This document shows, piece after piece, positions 1,425 to 58,751 of a DNA stretch of 64,000 nucleotides. Location of the stretch: positions 160,001 to 224,000 of the IMG/VR virus record IMGVR_UViG_3300005326_000040, one strand, 5' to 3'. Source of the DNA: a virus. Lineage: Duplodnaviria; Caudoviricetes. The stretch's first letter is position 1; each line of letters opens with the position of its first letter. The notes under the pieces are model-generated. The model saw only the letters and a list, made by a program, of their open reading frames with translations, did no database searches and was not told the origin of the DNA. Made by a program: the position numbers and the translations under genes.

Positions 1425-1801
1425 GCCAACGTGGCGGAATCGGCAGACGCAGTGGATTCAGCTTTCAAAATGGATCGCCACAGCCGAAAGGCTATGGTAG
1501 TACGCGGCTAATTCGGGGAACGCTAAAAGGTAAAACAGGTTTTACTTCACGCCAATCCCGAGCTAAATGAACTCTCCAATGGTTCGACCAGTAGAGTTCT
1601 AAATGTGTAGAGACTATATACCGCGCACCTAAGTTGATGGAGCTTATATTGCGAACAGCTAAACGGCTTCAAAGATACGGTGAAGAGATAGTCCAGACCA
1701 CGAACACAACCAGAAACATGCTGGAAGTGGCGCCGAAAGACGAAGTGGCAGGCAAAATCCACCGGGTAACTCCCGTGAGAGTTCAAGTCTCTCCGTTGGC
1801 A
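1425..1801 (+). tRNA. tRNA-Leu(CAA) interrupted by a group I intron (exons 1425-1458 and 1753-1801)
   Basis: Joined exons fold as cloverleaf: acceptor GCCAACG/CGTTGGC, anticodon stem GTGGA/TCCAC with loop TT|CAAAA, long variable arm CGGG-TAACT-CCCG, T arm GAGAG-TTCAAGT-CTCTC. Confidence 0.93.
1459..1752 (+). mobile_element. Group I self-splicing intron (294 nt, no internal endonuclease ORF)
   Basis: P1 GAUU|CA:UGGAUC with U.G wobble at 5' splice site; P AAUUCGGGGAA (1510-1520), Q AAUCCCGAGC (1554-1563), R GUAGAGACUA (1607-1616), S AAGAGAUAGUCC (1683-1694); P3 CGCGG/CCGCG; P7 GACUA/UAGUC; terminal G1752. Confidence 0.93.
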
Positions 1802-2248
1802 CTATACATTCTTTTGAGGAAACACCTTCTCAACTTCCCTTACATATTTCTCAACTCCACCCAATACATCATAAATAAATCCAGGCGCAATACTTTTGAC
1901 AGCGTTGACTACCTGTGTTATCTCTGATATAATCCTTTGCTTTTCATCCTTTATATCCTCAGCGGCGCTAAAGACTTTCACAGCGACGATAGAATCAATA
2001 ACGTCTTTAGTGACTGTGAATTCTTTTTCTTTCTTAAGAAGGCCAATCAAAGCACTAGCGTTAGCTTTTGCTTTCGTTGCTATCGTAACAACCTCCGGCT
2101 TGGTACTTGAAGAAAGTTTTCCGCCAGCTTGCATGACATTTGAAAGTAGATTGATGGCGGCTTGAACGTTAGCATCCTGAGCGTTCTTGAGAAGAGAGGC
2201 TAGGACGGAAGAAGTAATCAGGGAGGAAGAAGAAAGTTTCGTTATCAT
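1802..2248 (-). CDS. hypothetical protein inside tRNA cluster
   Basis: 148-aa ORF filling the gap between tRNA-Leu and tRNA-Arg. Confidence 0.6.
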   Translation of the reverse strand: MITKLSSSSLITSSVLASLLKNAQDANVQAAINLLSNVMQAGGKLSSSTKPEVVTIATKAKANASALIGLLKKEKEFTVTKDVIDSIVAVKVFSAAEDIKDEKQRIISEITQVVNAVKSIAPGFIYDVLGGVEKYVREVEKVFPQKNV

Positions 2249-2281: not shown

Positions 2282-2354
2282 GTCCTCGTAGCTCAGGGGA
2301 TAGAGCGGCTGCCTCCTAAGCAGCGGGTCGCCCGTTCAAATCGGGCCGAGGACG
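2282..2354 (+). tRNA. tRNA-Arg(CCT)
   Basis: GTCCTCG/CGAGGAC acceptor, D-loop with A20, GCTGC-CTCCTAA-GCAGC, T arm GCCCG-TTCAAAT-CGGGC. Confidence 0.93.
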
Positions 2355-2396: not shown

Positions 2397-2468
2397 CGCG
2401 GAATGGCGCAGAAGCAGCGCGTAAGATTCATGATCTTAAGGCCATAGGTGCAAGTCCTATTTCCGCAA
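2397..2468 (+). tRNA. tRNA-Met(CAT) with fMet-type acceptor stem, atypical
   Basis: CGCGGAA/TTCCGCA-A acceptor with C1xA72 mismatch; TAAGA-TTCATGA-TCTTA; T-loop TGCAAGT. Confidence 0.8.
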
Positions 2469-2472
2469 CTAT

Positions 2473-2546
2473 TGAGGCGTAGCTCAATTGGATAGAGCGT
2501 CGGTTTCTGGCACCGAATGTTGTGAGTTCAAGCCTTACCGCCTCAG
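2473..2546 (+). tRNA. tRNA-Gln(CTG)
   Basis: TGAGGCG/CGCCTCA-G (U1:A72, G73), TCGGT-TTCTGGC-ACCGA, T-loop TTCAAGC. Confidence 0.88.
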
Positions 2547-2547
2547 C

Positions 2548-2624
2548 CGCAAGATGGAGTAAATGGCAACTCGCCGTCCCATATAAGGACGGAAATCTGT
2601 ACTAGCCTCACAGTCTTGCCACCA
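2548..2624 (+). ncRNA. non-canonical tRNA-like element with encoded CCA
   Basis: Acceptor CGCAAGA/TCTTGCC-A-CCA (C1xC72), D arm GAGT-AAATGGCA-ACTC, 6-bp stem CCGTCC/GGACGG with loop CATATAA, T arm without TTC. Confidence 0.6.
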
Positions 2625-3890: not shown

Positions 3891-3963
3891 ACGCCGGTAG
3901 CTCAGTGGTAAGAGCAGAGTCCTTATAAGGCTTTGGTCGGTAGTTCAATCCTACCTCGGCGTA
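3891..3963 (+). tRNA. tRNA-Ile(TAT)
   Basis: ACGCCGG/TCGGCGT-A, GAGTC-CTTATAA-GGCTT, T arm GGTAG-TTCAATC-CTACC. Confidence 0.9.
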
Positions 3964-4254: not shown

Positions 4255-5253
4255 ATGCCTCGTATGCCTTATATTGATATTGAGATGCCGCACATTCCTC
4301 ATATTGATACTCGTGGCGTAGTGTTTCAAATGTTTCAAATGCCAGATTATAACGCTTTTGTAGAGCATCTTGCGCGTTTGGGCGGACAGCTTATTAACTC
4401 TGAACACGCCGAAGAAAATACGAGAACAACCATGTACGAAAACTACAAGAATACCGTTAGCGTTGAACTCTGGACCATGTTCGACAAGCTCATCTGTGAC
4501 TCTTTTCATCATATTCGCCATGAGATGCGTGTTAACGGTAACGATACGATCAACGCTGGCTTCCGTCGTAACAATCATCCTTACGCCTATGCGGTTGGAA
4601 TGATCGCCAGTCTTGCGAAACTCAGCGGTGTTACCGAAGATATCTCTGTGGTTCCTGACGGCAACCTGGGTAACATCTCCCAGAAGATGCGGGAATTGAT
4701 TATTCATTTTGAGGAGAAGGTTCTCAAGGAAGAAGGTTTCCGCAGTCACAATATGTGCGATCATTGCTTTACGAAGTACGGTTTGGACTCACGCCGCAAG
4801 CAGCTTCCTGTTGAATTCGTTTTGCTTGGTAGCCCGGACCTCAAGGATGTTCTTATCGAGAGTTCGGAGAAGGGTGGACCCAGCCCTCGTTCGCTTATCA
4901 TTGCTACTGGCCTTACGGACACAAGTGAGTTTGCGTTCTACAATGCTTCTTACGAGATGAGGGACCTTTCTATTCTGAATCTCAGCGAAGTCATTGATAC
5001 CTTTGATCCTGCTGCTGGCGAAAAGTTCAAGAATGAAATGATTGTTAAGTCGCGTGGCGGCTGCACTTGCGGTCATTGTCCTCCTTCGGTTCATTGGGTT
5101 GAAGGCGTGAAGGTTACTCCGGACGATATGGGTCAGACCATTCGGTTTGAAAAGAAGGATTCTGACATTCGAGTTGAGATCAGCGTGCGTGACTTCTTGT
5201 ACGCAGTGGACCCCAACTTCAAGAAGATTGTGGATGCGGCGAAGGAATCTTGA
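4255..5253 (+). CDS. hypothetical protein with Cys/His clusters
   Basis: 332-aa ORF, GGGG RBS; CDHC and CTCGHC motifs. Confidence 0.85.
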   Translation: MPRMPYIDIEMPHIPHIDTRGVVFQMFQMPDYNAFVEHLARLGGQLINSEHAEENTRTTMYENYKNTVSVELWTMFDKLICDSFHHIRHEMRVNGNDTINAGFRRNNHPYAYAVGMIASLAKLSGVTEDISVVPDGNLGNISQKMRELIIHFEEKVLKEEGFRSHNMCDHCFTKYGLDSRRKQLPVEFVLLGSPDLKDVLIESSEKGGPSPRSLIIATGLTDTSEFAFYNASYEMRDLSILNLSEVIDTFDPAAGEKFKNEMIVKSRGGCTCGHCPPSVHWVEGVKVTPDDMGQTIRFEKKDSDIRVEISVRDFLYAVDPNFKKIVDAAKES

Positions 5254-5293
5254 TAGACACGCAACTGGAATAGACTTCCATAAAAGAGGTGCG

Positions 5294-6034
5294 ATGGGAA
5301 CCATTGTTATTGCTCATCGTATTTTCCCTGATTGGCCTATTGTAGTTGCGGCCAATCGTCATGAAAAATTCGGCAGACCATCAACAGGGTGGGAACATCA
5401 TCCTACCGAGGCTTATGTTTTTGCCCCTCGTGACCTTGTGCATAAGGGGACTTGGATTGGAATTAACAAAAAATATGGAACACTAGTTGCGATTACGAAC
5501 AATGCTATTCCAGAAATGAAAGGTAAGAAGTCTAGAGGGCAGCTGGCTTTGGGATGTCTTTCGCTGCCCTCTGTTGCTTCTATGCCTACCTTTGATGTTA
5601 CTTCTAAATTCAAAGCTAACTACAACGGTTTTCATCTCGTGCTGTTGGACCAGCAGTGCGGGATGATGACCGGCAATTACCGGCAAAATGTACTTACTGC
5701 TATTGCTCCGGACCCTGGTCTTCATGTGGTGACGGAGCGAGGTTTTACCAAAGGGCATTGTGGTCGCGCCAATGTTATTGAAAATGTATTTAGCGCAACC
5801 GTAAAAAATATTACCAATCCGCATGAGCATCCAGAAGCATTTGATCTTCTGTTGAATTTTCATGTGGACGGAAGTCCAAAAAACGATTGTTGTGTGCATG
5901 ATCATAACGAACCTCACAAAACAATTTCTTCTTCTCTAATCTTTATTGGCAAGCAAGGCGCTATTGTTTACGAACGTAACGGCTTTGCTTGCGTCAAACC
6001 ATTCAACAAGAAGCATGAAATAAAACTGGGATAA
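5294..6034 (+). CDS. NRDE/TANGO2-family (Ntn-hydrolase-like) protein
   Basis: AGAGGT RBS before ATG 5294; MGTIVIAH..DWPIVVAANRHE, GTWIGIN, SRGQL, NGFHLV, HKTISSSLI. Confidence 0.8.
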   Translation: MGTIVIAHRIFPDWPIVVAANRHEKFGRPSTGWEHHPTEAYVFAPRDLVHKGTWIGINKKYGTLVAITNNAIPEMKGKKSRGQLALGCLSLPSVASMPTFDVTSKFKANYNGFHLVLLDQQCGMMTGNYRQNVLTAIAPDPGLHVVTERGFTKGHCGRANVIENVFSATVKNITNPHEHPEAFDLLLNFHVDGSPKNDCCVHDHNEPHKTISSSLIFIGKQGAIVYERNGFACVKPFNKKHEIKLG

Positions 6035-21235: not shown

Positions 21236-21445
21236 TTGCTGGCGGGGGAAGAAACTTATAGAGGGAATATGATCGACCTAGCTTATATTGAAAGCAGGTG
21301 CAAAACACTTCATTTAAAATTGCCAGCTTTGGCACAATTGAAAGCAGCACAGCTAAAAAACGACAAGGAAAGCGTAGAAAGGATAGCAAAGAATATCCTC
21401 AGCTTCTTATCTGAAAGAAGTAGCAAACCTGGAAATACTAGATAA
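21236..21445 (+). CDS. hypothetical protein (start probably ATG 21269)
   Basis: GAGGG RBS before MIDLAY. Confidence 0.55.
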   Translation: MLAGEETYRGNMIDLAYIESRCKTLHLKLPALAQLKAAQLKNDKESVERIAKNILSFLSERSSKPGNTR

Positions 21446-24366: not shown

Positions 24367-24621
24367 ATGGGAAAAAAGATTAAGCGAGATAGGATTGAAG
24401 TGATTGGCGAGGTAGTTGAGTCTTTTCGCTCAGCCAGATTTTTGGTGAAGCTCAACGCAAACAGTGCTGAGACGGTAGTAAGTTGTACTCTGTGCGGAAA
24501 GATGAAGGAAAACTATATTAAGATTGTTCCTGGGGATACTGTCGTAGTTGAGCTTTGCCCATACGACATGACCAGCGGACGTATTATTTCCAGAGGAAAG
24601 CAGCGTATGGCAGCAGAGTAA
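24367..24621 (+). CDS. infA: translation initiation factor IF-1
   Basis: IEVIGEVVE...F.V.L...C.L.GKMK.NYIKIVPGD.V.VEL.PYD.T.GRI..R. Confidence 0.93.
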   Translation: MGKKIKRDRIEVIGEVVESFRSARFLVKLNANSAETVVSCTLCGKMKENYIKIVPGDTVVVELCPYDMTSGRIISRGKQRMAAE

Positions 24622-33512: not shown

Positions 33513-34949
33513 ATGAAAGTCACTGTTATTGTTCCTTTTGTTCGAATGGAGAATTTCGACAGATGCATTGAATCCATTCGAAAAAATCATGGATTGAGTG
33601 AAGATCCCGAGATTATTTGGGAACAGGACGAACTTGGTATCGGCTGTCCACGAATGGTAAAAAAATTGGTGGACAAATCGACCACCGATTTGGTTTGTTT
33701 TCTTGGAGATGATACCGAGCCCCAGCCAAACTTTCTGAGAAACGCTTTAGCTATGATGCGAAAGCTGGACTTATGGATGGTTGGATTTAATGACACTCAT
33801 ACGGTTCGTCCAACACATTGGTTAGCCAGCAAGAAACTTCTTAACGAAAGAGGGGAGTTTTTTGATACTCGGTTTGTACATAATTATTCTGATACAGAAC
33901 TGATGTTTCGTGCGGAACGGTTGGGGAAGTATGCTTGGTGTGAACAAGCTGTTGTTTTACACCATAACCCGTTAGCGGAAAAAAACATAAAACAAATCGA
34001 TAAGTTTTATCAACGGGGAGCAGATTACTTAAATCAAGACGAAAATCTTTTTCACGAATTGTGTTCTAAAGTATCTGTTGGCATGATTGTAAAGAATGAA
34101 GAAGTCATGTTGGCAGAGTGTCTTGAATCAGTAAAGGGCGCGGATGAAATAGTTGTTGTTGACACTGGTTCAACCGATCGAACCAAAGAAATAGCTGCTA
34201 GATATACTGATAAGATATACGATTTCAAATGGATTGATGATTTCGCGGCAGCTAGGAATTTCGTTATATCGAAATGTTCTCATGACTGGATTCTGTCTAT
34301 AGATGCTGATCAGTTATTGCTTCCCGGCAGTTTAGAACACTTCAAAGCTTTCTTACGTTCAAATGTAGAAATGCTGACTATTGGCACACACATGGTTGAC
34401 CCTGGTGTAGAATATTATGTGCCTAGGTTTTTCCGTAACGTTCCTTGCAATAGATGGCAGGGTATGATTCATGAAGCTATTGTGTTGACGCCCGGCAGGC
34501 ATATTGAATTGTCGGAAGTAAAGATTACCAGTAGGTTTAGTCCAGCGCATACTCAAGACCCAGATAGAAGTGTACGAATTCTATTGAAAGCGGTAGAGAA
34601 GGAACCAACAAGTTCTCGTTACTGGTATTACTTGGGACGGGAATACTGTTACCTCAAAGAATTTGAAAAAGCAGTATCTTGTTTAGATAAATGTGTTTCT
34701 TTTTGCGCGTGGTTACCTGAAAGAGCAGACGCATATTATTTGAAAGCGCTTTCTTTATGGTATCTTTGTAAGGGAGATAAAGCAAGAGAGGCTTGTTTTC
34801 AAGCTTTGTCTATCAACTCTGAATTCAAGTCTGCCTCTTTGCTTATGGCAGAAATGTCATGGGACCATAACAAAGCGGGTTGGCTTAGGATGGCTAACGG
34901 GGCAACCAATCAAGACGTTTTGTTTCGACGCGAAACGTTGTGCTTTTAG
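33513..34949 (+). CDS. double GT2 glycosyltransferase with TPR tail
   Basis: First GT-A: VIVPF..LGDD..YSDTE..HHNP; second: MIVKNEE..LAECLESV..DTGSTDRT..DFAAARN..SIDAD; C-terminal TPR-like helices. Confidence 0.9.
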   Translation: MKVTVIVPFVRMENFDRCIESIRKNHGLSEDPEIIWEQDELGIGCPRMVKKLVDKSTTDLVCFLGDDTEPQPNFLRNALAMMRKLDLWMVGFNDTHTVRPTHWLASKKLLNERGEFFDTRFVHNYSDTELMFRAERLGKYAWCEQAVVLHHNPLAEKNIKQIDKFYQRGADYLNQDENLFHELCSKVSVGMIVKNEEVMLAECLESVKGADEIVVVDTGSTDRTKEIAARYTDKIYDFKWIDDFAAARNFVISKCSHDWILSIDADQLLLPGSLEHFKAFLRSNVEMLTIGTHMVDPGVEYYVPRFFRNVPCNRWQGMIHEAIVLTPGRHIELSEVKITSRFSPAHTQDPDRSVRILLKAVEKEPTSSRYWYYLGREYCYLKEFEKAVSCLDKCVSFCAWLPERADAYYLKALSLWYLCKGDKAREACFQALSINSEFKSASLLMAEMSWDHNKAGWLRMANGATNQDVLFRRETLCF

Positions 34950-55101: not shown

Positions 55102-56256
55102 ATGGATGATCGTTCAACTTTGAATGACACATTAGTCGGGCACAAAGTCAACGCGATGTGTACCAACGTTCGTCGCCTTGAGAACTATGATATCTTTACA
55201 TTGGTTCTTGGGGACGGATGTAAAATTAAGCTACTTGAAAACATTTCTCGCGAAATTCAGCTTGCTATGAAGTTGCAGTCACCGCCAGTATTCCATCCTG
55301 ATTATTCGAACGGCTTGTTGCTTATGGTGGCTGCGCGCAGGGTTGATTCTCCGATTCTTCTTTCATCCATTATCGAACCAAAGAAGCCTGGCAATTACGA
55401 TTGTCAGCTTGGTTATGATATGTATGGAGCGAAGGTTTCGCTAGACATTACTAAAGCTCCGCATATTTTGGTGTCTGGAACTACCGGTTCCGGAAAATCT
55501 GTTTGTTTGAATTTGCTTGCGGCAAACATTCTTGCCATGGGAAATGGCGAAGCAACATTGTGCGTTACTGACCCTAAAATGGTTGAATTTGAATATCTGA
55601 AGGACGCTTGTGTTCGATATGAAAATGATTATCGCGGCACGGTGAAGTATCTTCAGGAAGTTGTTGACTATATGGAGGAGAGATACGAAGTATTGAAACA
55701 GTTTGGATGCAGAGACATCTCAGATTTGCCTGCGGAGTATAAGACGACGCGTACATTCATTATTATTGATGAAATTGCTGACCTTATGGTTCATGATAAG
55801 TCTGGTAGGCTTTCGAATTTGATTGCCCGACTGGCGGCGAAATCTAGGGCTGCTGGCATTCATATGATTCTAGCTACTCAGCGACCGTCAGTGAACGTTG
55901 TAAGCGGTCTAATCAAGGCTAATTTCCCGGTACGTATTACTTTTAGAGTGGCATCTTCGACCGATAGCCGCGTTGTCATTGATATGAATGGCGCAGAAAA
56001 TCTTATGCCCAAGGGGGACGGTATTATTTTTGGATACGGGGACCGACAGATGGTTCGGTTCCGTGCGGCTTATGTAACACCGGCAGAAGTAATGAAGTAT
56101 TACAAGGATAATTATGACCCCTCTATGGATTATTATAAGGATGAAGAATCCGATGAAGATGATGAAGATGTCGAGGAAGATGATTTAAGAAATTATAGCA
56201 TGGCTAGGGTTGACCCTGAAGCCGACGCAGAATTGCAGCGTTTTTTGAACTCCTAA
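55102..56256 (+). CDS. FtsK/SpoIIIE-family DNA translocase ATPase (no TM segment, no evident gamma domain)
   Basis: APHILVSGTTGSGKSV, DPKMVE, IIDEIADLM, RAAGIHMILATQRPS, GAENLMPKGD. Confidence 0.93.
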   Translation: MDDRSTLNDTLVGHKVNAMCTNVRRLENYDIFTLVLGDGCKIKLLENISREIQLAMKLQSPPVFHPDYSNGLLLMVAARRVDSPILLSSIIEPKKPGNYDCQLGYDMYGAKVSLDITKAPHILVSGTTGSGKSVCLNLLAANILAMGNGEATLCVTDPKMVEFEYLKDACVRYENDYRGTVKYLQEVVDYMEERYEVLKQFGCRDISDLPAEYKTTRTFIIIDEIADLMVHDKSGRLSNLIARLAAKSRAAGIHMILATQRPSVNVVSGLIKANFPVRITFRVASSTDSRVVIDMNGAENLMPKGDGIIFGYGDRQMVRFRAAYVTPAEVMKYYKDNYDPSMDYYKDEESDEDDEDVEEDDLRNYSMARVDPEADAELQRFLNS

Positions 56257-56268
56257 TGGAGAATAGTA

Positions 56269-57477
56269 ATGAGCGGATATGATGTTGCGCAAGTAAAACA
56301 AGCCATTAAGAATAAATGGGATTGGAGAAGTGGTGATTTCCATTACACTCCGATTTTAGTTTGGGGCGGTCCTGGTATTGGTAAAACTCATATTCTTAAT
56401 CAAGTTGTTTCGGAGAGAAAGATTGTTGAATTAAAAGAGAATTCAGACCCTCGTTTGGAGCGCTTACTGGAATTCAATCGTCCAGAGGACGTTGAAGATA
56501 TTCTTGAAGAGAATTTGCTTAATATTCGATTGGCTGAACGTCCGCTAGAACAAATTGAAGGGATGCCATATCCATACCCTAAAGAGGGGTATATGGAGTT
56601 CTTGGCTCCGAAGAATTTGCAGAAGCTCAAGGCAGCTAAGTGGGTTGTTATTCTGCTGGATGAATTGGATAAGGCTGGCCCCGCCAAGATGGCTGCGGTA
56701 ACGCATCTTATCGAGTCGGGTGTCGTTGGTGATTTCAAGTTCCCCAAGGATACTTTTGTTGTCGCTGCCGCAAATAGGGTGACTGATTCATATCTTAGCC
56801 GCCCTATTTCGGCAGAACTCTGTAATAGGATGGCTCATATTGAGCTAGTTCCAACGGTTGATAATTTCGTTTCTTGGGCAAAGAATTGCGAAGACATCTT
56901 AGATGAAGTGATTGCTTTTCATCGTTTCAATAAGTTGCGTAACGAAAATTATCTTCTTAGTGACGATAAGGACCGTGAAGTTGAGACGGTAAGAGCGTTC
57001 AAGTCGCCACGAAGCTGGCATTATGGTTCTCGTCAGATGAAAAAGATTTACACCAGACATGGGTGTAAACCAGGACAAATTATTAACGTTGATGACGAGG
57101 CGTTTTTTGAATTAGAACAGTTGGTTGGTGAGCGGCCAGCAATTGAATTTGCTACTTATCTGCGATTGTACCGAGACATCGATGTTGGTCGTATTCTTAA
57201 GGGCGAACTTGTTTTGCCTACAGGCGACCGCAAAGATTGTCTATCTAATCAGTATACGTTTACTATGGTTCTGATTGATCAGCTGACGGAAAGGGACCTT
57301 AAGAAACATGGTTTGAAATATGTTGTGCGGGCCATGTGTGAAATGTATCCAGAAGTGTGCAGTGTATTCCTTAGTGCGCTGAGCAGTTCAAACAAGAAGG
57401 TTTTCGAACATATTGTTAACTCCAAAGAAGCAAATGATTCTGGAATGATTAAACAGGTATTGGATGGTTTGATGTAG
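56269..57477 (+). CDS. MoxR-like AAA+ ATPase
   Basis: WGGPGIGKT, LLDELDKA, AAANR, AELCNRMAH. Confidence 0.9.
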   Translation: MSGYDVAQVKQAIKNKWDWRSGDFHYTPILVWGGPGIGKTHILNQVVSERKIVELKENSDPRLERLLEFNRPEDVEDILEENLLNIRLAERPLEQIEGMPYPYPKEGYMEFLAPKNLQKLKAAKWVVILLDELDKAGPAKMAAVTHLIESGVVGDFKFPKDTFVVAAANRVTDSYLSRPISAELCNRMAHIELVPTVDNFVSWAKNCEDILDEVIAFHRFNKLRNENYLLSDDKDREVETVRAFKSPRSWHYGSRQMKKIYTRHGCKPGQIINVDDEAFFELEQLVGERPAIEFATYLRLYRDIDVGRILKGELVLPTGDRKDCLSNQYTFTMVLIDQLTERDLKKHGLKYVVRAMCEMYPEVCSVFLSALSSSNKKVFEHIVNSKEANDSGMIKQVLDGLM

Positions 57478-57491
57478 TTGATAGGCTAACA

Positions 57492-58751
57492 ATGATAAAA
57501 CTTTCAAGTTTGACTTTGTCCAAAGAGGATTATCTTTCCTATAGTAATATTTTGGGGCATTCAATCTCCTGCTTGGTGACTGATGCCCCTTTCTCTATGC
57601 CTATTATTAAGATGCCTCGATTGTTTTGCAATATTGAGCAGGCATATGCAGCAACTGATGGCAGATCGATTTTTATCAACCCAACTCGGTGGGTTCCTCT
57701 TCCAAAGCCGCAACGACAGGGTATTGTTTATCATGAATGGCTTCATGTAGGGTTTCGGCACCCTTGGAGAATGAAGAACAGGATTCATCGCGTGTGGGGA
57801 TTTGGTTGTGATTTCGCCATTGATTCTCATATTATGCAAGATGTAAATCCCGATAAAATGACCATTGCTCGCGGGATGCTTTATGACCCTTATTATAATG
57901 GGTGGAACGCTGAAAAGATTTATGAAGACCTTCTCGACGTGTCTGAAAATATAGAAATAGGAGATCTTTCTGATTTTGAACAAAAAGCTAAACAACAACA
58001 GTTTTGTGACAGAGAAACTGCCGCAAAATTGTTGAAGCTGGACAAGAAAATTGAAGAGATATTTTCTGACGATCTTATTCAAGCTCCGTCAGACATGAAT
58101 GATTTTGATAAAGAAATGCTTCGTGATACAATTCGTTCAGCCGAACAGGCAAAGAAATTTGGGAAAGATATTCCTGGAGAGTATTTACTTAACATTGATG
58201 TTCTAAAGCGCTCTCGAACGGATTGGGCGAAAGCCTTTGCTTGTTATTGGATGAATGTGGTCCAGGCAACAGGTGATCGGAATTACTATCGACCTAAGAA
58301 GTGGGGCTTTCCTTTTGGTATTATTATTCCTACAGAAGCAAACGTAGGTAAAATTAATGTCACTTTTATTTGCGACGTGAGTGGGTCGAGGTACGTCGCT
58401 GCTGCTTTTGAATCTTATGTAAAAGAATTGAACGCTATGATGCCTCACGTAGAGAGGCTTACCGTTATCACTGCTGATTGTGTTGTTCAGGAAAAAGCAA
58501 CAATATCTAACATCTCTGAAATTATTGGAGCGCGCAAAAAGATTAAATTCAAAGGTGGTGGAGGAACAGATTTTCGTCCGGCATTACAAGAGGCGGCGAA
58601 GACAATGCCTGACCTCGTTATATATTACACAGATAGTTTTGGAGAATATGGAAGTAAAGCTCCTGGCGGCATCCAAAATTTACTTTGGGTATATGCAAAT
58701 CGTGATTTCAAACCCCCACCTTATGGGCGATATTTAGTGATAGGTGATTAA
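57492..58751 (+). CDS. DUF2201-like metallopeptidase plus vWA-like domain
   Basis: AATDG..IFINP, HEWLH zincin motif, DVSGS MIDAS, GGGGTDFRP, YTD.FG. Confidence 0.9.
   Translation: MIKLSSLTLSKEDYLSYSNILGHSISCLVTDAPFSMPIIKMPRLFCNIEQAYAATDGRSIFINPTRWVPLPKPQRQGIVYHEWLHVGFRHPWRMKNRIHRVWGFGCDFAIDSHIMQDVNPDKMTIARGMLYDPYYNGWNAEKIYEDLLDVSENIEIGDLSDFEQKAKQQQFCDRETAAKLLKLDKKIEEIFSDDLIQAPSDMNDFDKEMLRDTIRSAEQAKKFGKDIPGEYLLNIDVLKRSRTDWAKAFACYWMNVVQATGDRNYYRPKKWGFPFGIIIPTEANVGKINVTFICDVSGSRYVAAAFESYVKELNAMMPHVERLTVITADCVVQEKATISNISEIIGARKKIKFKGGGGTDFRPALQEAAKTMPDLVIYYTDSFGEYGSKAPGGIQNLLWVYANRDFKPPPYGRYLVIGD

Follow-up and report, generated by a model that had tools for sequence, protein, structure and literature searches.

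A jumbo phage tRNA(CAU) of initiator descent that keeps one of three anticodon-stem G-C pairs

Results

The tRNA(CAU) gene and its setting

The window, a 64-kb stretch corresponding to positions 160001-224000 of the phage record (C1:160001-224000), carries at 2397-2468 a tRNA with the anticodon CAU that, judged by its sequence profile, is of initiator (fMet) descent. We consider this tRNA(CAU) a real and probably functional phage initiator of a known kind, less broken than it was first read to be. The source record is a 338,055-bp IMG/VR virus, a jumbo phage, that is 97% complete with 41.6% GC; a groundwater metagenome is the single DNA sequencing run containing the record, with no RNA run among those listed. 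About 20 tRNA or tRNA-like genes occur in the phage genome, and the one at 2397-2468 is the only convincing CAU tRNA among them. The features of this region are as follows.

1905..1933, +: nearest upstream sigma70-like promoter match (11/12, extended -10; consensus match only), candidate promoter of the Arg-Met-Gln cluster
2282..2354, +: tRNA-Arg(CCT), upstream member of the cluster (ARAGORN, Rfam)
2397..2468, +: tRNA(CAU) descended from an initiator (fMet), 72 nt ending at discriminator A73, CCA not encoded (ARAGORN, Rfam, fold, Logan)
2397..2403, +: 5' acceptor strand, partner 2461-2467 (C1xA72, G2:C71, C3:G70, G4:C69, G5:C68, A6:U67, A7:U66)
2406..2420, +: D arm with a 7-nt loop, A18 (2413) and G19 (2414); C11:G24 replaces A11:U24, with initiator-type G12:C23
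2422..2438, +: anticodon arm, CAT at 2429-2431, U32 and G37 (2432); A29:U41, G30:C40 (2425/2435), A31:U39
2449..2455, +: T loop, G55 (2450) covarying with A18 (from sequence)
2473..2546, +: tRNA-Gln(CTG), downstream member of the cluster (ARAGORN, Rfam)
3891..3963, +: tRNA-Ile(TAT), able to read AUA (ARAGORN, Rfam)

The position of the gene given in the earlier note is confirmed by an ARAGORN call of tRNA-Met(CAT) at 2397-2469, an Rfam RF00005 match of 58.7 bits (E 4e-10), a minimum-energy fold that is a cloverleaf (with a folding z-score of only -1.27) and a Logan contig spanning 1390-2676 that shows zero letter differences from the window and may derive from the same sample. Sigma70-like promoter matches in the region number 11, with 6.2 expected. 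We found no close relative of tRNA(CAU) or its cluster in cultured phages, and a comparison of the neighboring proteins yielded no syntenic relative and no orthologous tRNA(CAU) locus in a close relative.

The 1x72 position is the sole mismatch across all four stems. The D stem is formed by G10:C25, C11:G24, G12:C23 and C13:G22, and the anticodon stem by U27:A43, A28:U42, A29:U41, G30:C40 and A31:U39. U8, A14, G19, U33, CAU, G53, U54, C56, A58 and C61 are all retained. CCA is not encoded, the letters after A73 (2468) being C, T and A. The initiator-like acceptor (C1xA72, G2:C71, C3:G70, A73), the C:G pair at 11:24 and the G at position 37 are as the earlier note had described. Its claim that the three anticodon G-C pairs were lost holds for 29:41 and 31:39, which are now A:U, but not for G30:C40, so two of the three are gone. 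Likewise, a D loop without GG and a TGC T loop (G55) are indeed present, but they are not two losses; they make up one linked A18/G55 change in which G19 and C56 are both kept. The combination of all these departures in one molecule is shown by none of the relatives that we fetched.

Relation to initiator, elongator and Ile2 tRNAs

The determinants for the formylase Fmt comprise C1xA72 as the major element and A73, G2:C71, C3:G70 and G4:C69 as minor ones, with a purine 11:pyrimidine 24 pair (R11:Y24) as a further element (PMC9976931). All of the acceptor and discriminator determinants are present in tRNA(CAU), and C11:G24 takes the place of R11:Y24. [quoted passage not shown] Because these two textbook features fail, we file tRNA(CAU) as an initiator variant and not as a canonical member. 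The marks of an elongator tRNA-Met, a paired 1:72 and U12:A23, are absent: C1xA72 and G12:C23 stand where E. coli metT has G1:C72 and U12:A23. The same two marks, A37 for t6A and an Ile2-like profile would identify an Ile2 tRNA, and tRNA(CAU) has none of them.

The weight matrices drew on 168 initiator-type and 57 elongator/Ile2-type CAU tRNAs among the fetched loci; the two classes were set by our own rules and checked against six annotated references, and scoring was confined to the 32 positions left free by the search patterns. On this scale tRNA(CAU) scores +17.6 bits towards initiator versus elongator/Ile2. The control initiators score +14.1 (E. coli metZ) and +8.2 (T5 fMet), the elongators -16.6 (metT) and -11.4 (T5 elongator Met), and the Ile2 tRNAs -43.9 (ileX) and -27.6 (T5 Ile2). 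In a leave-one-out analysis the initiator median is +14.6 and the elongator/Ile2 maximum is -1.0. The profile and the formylase determinants thus support an initiator-type origin, and the profile disfavors both of the ancestries that had been named as refuting it, elongator Met and lysidine-modified Ile2.

Comparison with the closest known tRNAs

Across 66 numbered positions tRNA(CAU) is identical to E. coli metZ/W/V (L329) at 45, versus 37 for metT and 36 for ileX. It shares with metZ/W/V C1xA72, G2:C71, C3:G70, G4:C69, G5:C68, G9, G12:C23, G26, G30:C40, CAU, A44 and A73, and differs in C11:G24, A29:U41, A31:U39, U32, G37, the A18/G55 elbow with its 7-nt D loop, A6:U67, A7:U66 and the lack of an encoded CCA. 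The T5 tRNA-fMet (T5t14, annotated "initiator tRNA fMet", NC_005859) is likewise phage-encoded, with a 1x72 mismatch, G2:C71, C3:G70 and G30:C40 as the only G-C pair kept in its A29:U41/G30:C40/U31.G39 stem; unlike tRNA(CAU), it has U1xU72, A11:U24, A37, U55, U73 and CCA, and T5 also encodes elongator Met and Ile2 tRNAs. Only 36 of the 66 positions are identical between the two, which argues for independent derivation. The T5 fMet-tRNA has reportedly been shown to be formylated.

Two further groups resemble tRNA(CAU) at the elbow. Patescibacteria initiators (L279, L234, L217) share the 7-nt D loop with A18 G19, G55 and fewer than three anticodon-stem G-C pairs, but they are cellular and keep A11:U24, A37 and two G-C pairs. 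A CAU tRNA of Campylobacter phage CP81 (L324:600-674), identical at 44 of 66 positions, shares C11:G24, A18/G55, the 7-nt D loop and a 1x72 mismatch, but keeps all three G-C pairs and A37 and has A1xA72. This initiator-like CP81 tRNA is unannotated, although it lies in a cultured phage. Since relaxed-stem phage initiators are already known from T5, cyanophages and Sinorhizobium phages, tRNA(CAU) alone is modest news.

The anticodon stem

E. coli is viable on initiators with au/gu/au and cg/GC/cg stems (middle G-C or G30 only), with reduced fitness; the exact A:U/G:C/A:U stem of tRNA(CAU) is absent from the mutants of Shetty et al., of which the nearest grow poorly in the cold or in minimal medium (PMC5389676). 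Since E. coli can do with the middle G-C pair alone, the idea that P-site function has been lost is weakened. G30:C40 is also the only pair kept in the T5 annotated initiator and in the phiM12 tRNA-Met. Among about 220 distinct initiator-type tRNAs that we fetched, pairing is maintained where G-C departs, at 29:41 in 149 of 151 cases and at 31:39 in 39 of 43, and 30:40 departs from G-C only 7 times. All three G-C pairs are found in only 5 of 38 distinct viral C11:G24 tRNAs. In a cellular control drawn from the phylum of Niabella, the pattern matched 115 of 301 genomes, and the copies listed have A11:U24, G30:C40, G31:C39 and A37 in all except one accessory gene. tRNA(CAU) shows how far viruses relax the three-G-C rule compared with hosts.

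The elbow and the 11:24 pair

The D-loop GG is absent in 90 of 96 initiator-type tRNAs with G55 versus 1 of 127 without it, a contrast among related sequences whose p-value is therefore overstated. The D loops of the G55 initiator-type tRNAs carry A18 G19; A18 covaries with G55, and the change is a compensated swap and not a loss. The A18/G55 initiators sit in chromosomal contexts adjoining topA, dprA, der and gatA, with proteins named Patescibacteria, and by this context A18/G55 is the standard chromosomal initiator form in Patescibacteria contigs. In these initiators (L279:177-252 (-), L234 and L217, and many among L203-L320) the D loop is 7 nt long and carries A18, G55 is present, and the anticodon stem as a rule has just two G-C pairs. 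A18/G55 also occurs in the cultured Campylobacter phage CP81. A literature search returned no paper on A18/G55 or on Patescibacteria initiators.

The C11:G24 initiator-like form was found at 41 viral loci, by a pattern that demanded a D loop of at least 8 nt and so leaves the 7-nt-loop tRNA of the window outside it, versus 12 matches when a slightly narrower pattern was run on 185,579 GTDB genomes. All five checked cellular genomes that hold the C11:G24 variant have a canonical initiator as well, which suggests that the C11:G24 form is accessory. One locus (L173) has C11:G24, A18/G55 and G37 and still keeps all three of the G-C pairs.

G37 and a recurrent viral anticodon arm

In E. coli the A37G change in tRNA-fMet is tolerated and active in initiation (PMC10018350). 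In our set G31:C39 is lost in 9 of 15 tRNAs with G37 versus 33 of 208 without it (Fisher p 3e-4, without phylogenetic correction). G37 is not confined to initiators: about 13 distinct viral CAU tRNAs of elongator type have it too. A scan for the arm G30 A31 [loop with G37] U39 C40 on an initiator-type D stem returned 23 viral loci, 18 of them distinct, with G2:C71 and C3:G70 in all and G1:C72 in none; the 1x72 position is mismatched in 14 and weakly paired in 4, and A11:U24 is present in 13. In three of the loci (L341/L342/L350) the anticodon arm is identical to that of tRNA(CAU). The phages that carry the A31:U39+G37 arm share almost no proteins with the window phage. No description of this arm was found in the literature searched, from which subscription journals were mostly absent, and annotation tools file such tRNAs as plain tRNA-Met. 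On these sequence comparisons, A31:U39+G37 is a recurrent and apparently undescribed viral arm.

IF-1 and start codons

The earlier note had proposed that tRNA(CAU) might belong to a phage-tuned initiation system together with an IF-1 and many TTG/GTG starts. The IF-1 is real:

24367..24621, +: phage IF-1, 84 aa, full-length PF01176 member (PF01176 E 6.4e-17; PDB IF-1 matches E 9e-14)

Its homologues are 58-71% identical, and the two that we checked sit in syntenic contigs. In one related contig (L323:1215-2570) a T4-type RNA ligase gene directly follows IF-1 and is absent at that place in the window; the controls in the T4-type RNA ligase search were silent. The remainder of the proposal did not hold up. 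In a set of 190 tightly packed starts chosen without SD information, 175 are ATG, and a second caller gives 92% overall, within the range of GC-matched comparison phages. With ordinary start codons, IF-1 lying 22 kb from tRNA(CAU) and nothing linking the two, and no IF3, Fmt or MetRS found in the phage genome, a tuned system of this kind lacks support. A 4-base SD core precedes 43-55% of starts versus 6% in the background, and about half are without it. A search for non-standard starts (e.g. AUA read by the tRNA-like neighbor at 2548) found no coding ORF without ATG, GTG or TTG.

Position 37 of the tRNA pairs with the -1 base of the mRNA, and A37G shifts the preference to C (PMC10018350). Because of this pairing with the base before AUG, we examined the phage starts, taken from a simple in-house gene caller, for a signature of G37. 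If start selection were tuned through position 37, G37 would favor C(-1) and the host preference for U(-1) would be lost. The window phage genome shows no U excess and has C(-1) at 76 of 299 starts (25%), compared with 15.8% at the positions on either side (p=2e-5). The C(-1) excess is strongest in C1:60-165 kb (46/130, 35%, versus 34/198, 17%, elsewhere), a region whose boundaries were chosen after looking; within C1:60000-165000 the C excess is specific to position -1. When 19 G37 phage clusters are compared with 38 A37 clusters, adjustment for GC and SD use leaves U(-1) lower by 0.13 in the G37 clusters (t -3.0), with a permutation p of 0.003 one-sided and 0.019 over four bases; another adjusted estimate of the effect is -0.12 (p 0.006), and the U(-1) excess at GC under 50% is 0.014 (G37) versus 0.178 (A37; p 0.008).

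The predicted gain of C(-1) is, however, absent across the clusters (p 0.55-0.99), the lost U(-1) being replaced mostly by A. Several G37 phages retain a strong U(-1) excess, and in the window genome both bases fall within 0.7 SD of what A37 predicts. We rejected C(-1) enrichment as a signature of G37, since G37 phages are not different from A37 phages. In addition, C at -4 and C at -9 each reach a similar t (+2.9), a sign that host or lineage confounds the U(-1) signal. The association of G37 with U(-1) is a weak lead and not a result, and we regard tuned start selection through position 37 as decidedly unlikely. If G37 does also bias start choice, these phages would be natural material for testing the pairing between positions 37 and -1.

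Discussion

Proposed function of tRNA(CAU)

Each change in tRNA(CAU) has a working precedent, which makes a functional spare starter tRNA the most likely reading. That the molecule works as an initiator seems rather probable from its sequence, and we lean, somewhat less firmly, towards an accessory phage-encoded initiator tRNA-fMet. In such a role, tRNA(CAU) would be co-transcribed with the Arg and Gln tRNAs from the nearby sigma70-like promoter, and CCA would be added by a host or phage nucleotidyltransferase; the phage has a CCA/poly(A) polymerase family protein (PF01743) at C1:296282. Host MetRS would charge the tRNA through CAU, and host Fmt would formylate it via the acceptor stem, perhaps more slowly owing to C11:G24. 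It would enter the P site through the retained G30:C40, less efficiently than the host tRNA, and could sustain initiation when host tRNA-fMet is depleted. The phage also encodes a peptide deformylase (C1:263617).

A different assignment of the CAU anticodon, to a lysidine-modified tRNA-Ile2 reading AUA, is hardly credible. The anticodon and A73 are common to both kinds and C11:G24 is an elongator-type pair, but the scores of ileX (-43.9) and T5 Ile2 (-27.6) lie far from the +17.6 of tRNA(CAU), which has G12:C23 and the 1x72 mismatch. Moreover, t6A37 is a strong determinant for bacterial IleRS (PMC9976931) and G37 is unable to carry t6A, a search of the phage for TilS found none, and the tRNA-Ile(TAT) that the phage already encodes can read AUA, which removes the need for such a tRNA. 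More room is left for a molecule derived from an initiator that now has a dual function or serves mainly as an elongator tRNA-Met, with weak formylation (C11:G24) and a weak P-site grip letting part of it go to EF-Tu, so that both Met roles fall to a single gene. No other CAU tRNA was found in a genome that is 97% complete, 1x72-mismatch initiators elongate when formylation is slow (PMC6393288), and E. coli can be sustained by single dual-function mutants (PMC6265465). A weak 1:72 pair occurs in 4 of the 18 members of the arm subfamily, and a Thg1-like enzyme might rewrite position 1 to pair with A72; a Thg1-family gene is present at C1:148877, but its action on tRNA(CAU) is speculation. Against this, C1xA72, the major formylase determinant, is intact, initiators with a wild-type acceptor were unable to replace elongator Met (PMC6265465), and several phages (L002, L004, L039, L193) have a separate elongator-type CAU tRNA beside the initiator-type one. 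We consider the dual role unlikely.

It is very unlikely that tRNA(CAU) is a decoy soaking up tRNA-targeting enzymes, or a relaxed and decaying copy, like other tRNA-like RNAs of this phage. Several of those have shrunken anticodon loops, an initiator-like mimic lies 80 nt downstream, about a third of the phage's tRNAs have non-standard T loops, and the folding z-score of tRNA(CAU) is modest (-1.27). The stems of tRNA(CAU) are nevertheless fully paired except at 1x72, the conserved positions from U8 to C61 are kept, and its changes come in pairs and are seen again in phages not related to this one.

Possible toxin evasion

For a spare initiator, evasion of host toxins appears the likeliest single reason, by analogy with other phage tRNAs; as the selective reason for the changes in tRNA(CAU) it is plausible but tentative. 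The cut made by fMet-specific VapC toxins falls where the anticodon stem meets its loop, depends on both sequence and structure, and spares elongator Met (PMC8522696); the 31:39 pair, U32 and G37 of tRNA(CAU) flank this junction. AtaT reads three G-C pairs at 4-6:67-69 (PMC7595197), of which tRNA(CAU) has two, A6:U67 breaking the third. The rebuilt 31:39 pair and the G37 close to the VapC cut, together with the A:U pairs of the lower acceptor, probably leave it a poor target of host toxins that are specific for fMet.

Phage tRNAs that evade nucleases provide the closest parallel. The T5 tRNA-Lys escapes PARIS through changes in its anticodon stem-loop (PMC11464382), and in this case as in mycobacteriophage tRNAs (PMC10264068) a phage copy of a toxin-targeted host tRNA has an altered anticodon stem-loop. 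Those tRNAs, however, are elongators, and for T5 the nuclease is named and the resistance has been tested. According to van den Berg et al. (PMC10264068), phages confronted with VapC-LT2 tend to do without a tRNA-fMet of their own instead of mutating it, which counts against evasion. By analogy, the anticodon arm of tRNA(CAU) may escape VapC-like nucleases. The VapC of NTHi reportedly needs the G-C pairs adjoining the loop. T5 also appears to carry a phage starter tRNA that host toxins possibly miss. If the arm resists VapC-type toxins, tRNA-based counter-defence would be extended to the initiation step.

A broader proposal joins the two strands: the A31:U39+G37 arm would define a viral initiator class that escapes fMet-specific toxins and, through G37/-1 pairing, shifts initiation to phage start contexts, with mRNAs co-adapted by loss of the U(-1) preference. 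We think this quite unlikely; if true, the class would exemplify in nature the four-base initiator-mRNA pairing that has until now been demonstrated with engineered tRNAs only.

Other tRNA-like genes and features of the window

The tRNA-like RNA at 2548..2624 (+), 80 nt downstream of tRNA(CAU), has C1xC72, G2:C71, C3:G70, A11:U24, G12:C23, A73 and an encoded CCA, together with an A33 loop, a nominal UAU and a degenerate T arm, and draws no ARAGORN or Rfam call. It keeps the A11:U24 and encoded CCA that are missing from tRNA(CAU), and could be a formylase or acetylase decoy. Upstream, tRNA-Leu(CAA) at 1425-1801 (+) contains a 294-nt group I intron after U33 (Rfam RF00028, 53.9 bits), the only group I match in the phage genome. 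A tRNA-Asn(GTT) at C1:27815-27946 contains an insert of 57 nt, and one of 51 nt is present in a weaker tRNA-Glu(TTC)-like call at C1:231136-231278. The anticodon loops are shrunk to 3-5 nt in the tRNA-like genes at C1:87933, 88388, 110581, 112577 and 28046, the last of which has a G3.U70 alanine-type acceptor and is labeled a TTA "stop" tRNA by ARAGORN.

Elsewhere in the window, a sub-threshold Rfam CRISPR-DR22 match at 21326-21361 (+; 29.9 bits, cut-off 50) is a single copy with no array seen, and is probably due to chance. A TANGO2/NRDE-family protein (PF05742, E 8e-21) is encoded at 5147-6034 (+), FtsK/SpoIIIE-like ATPase, ATPase and HNH-family genes follow one another at 55102-58751 (+), and a glycosyltransferase gene lies at 33513-34949.
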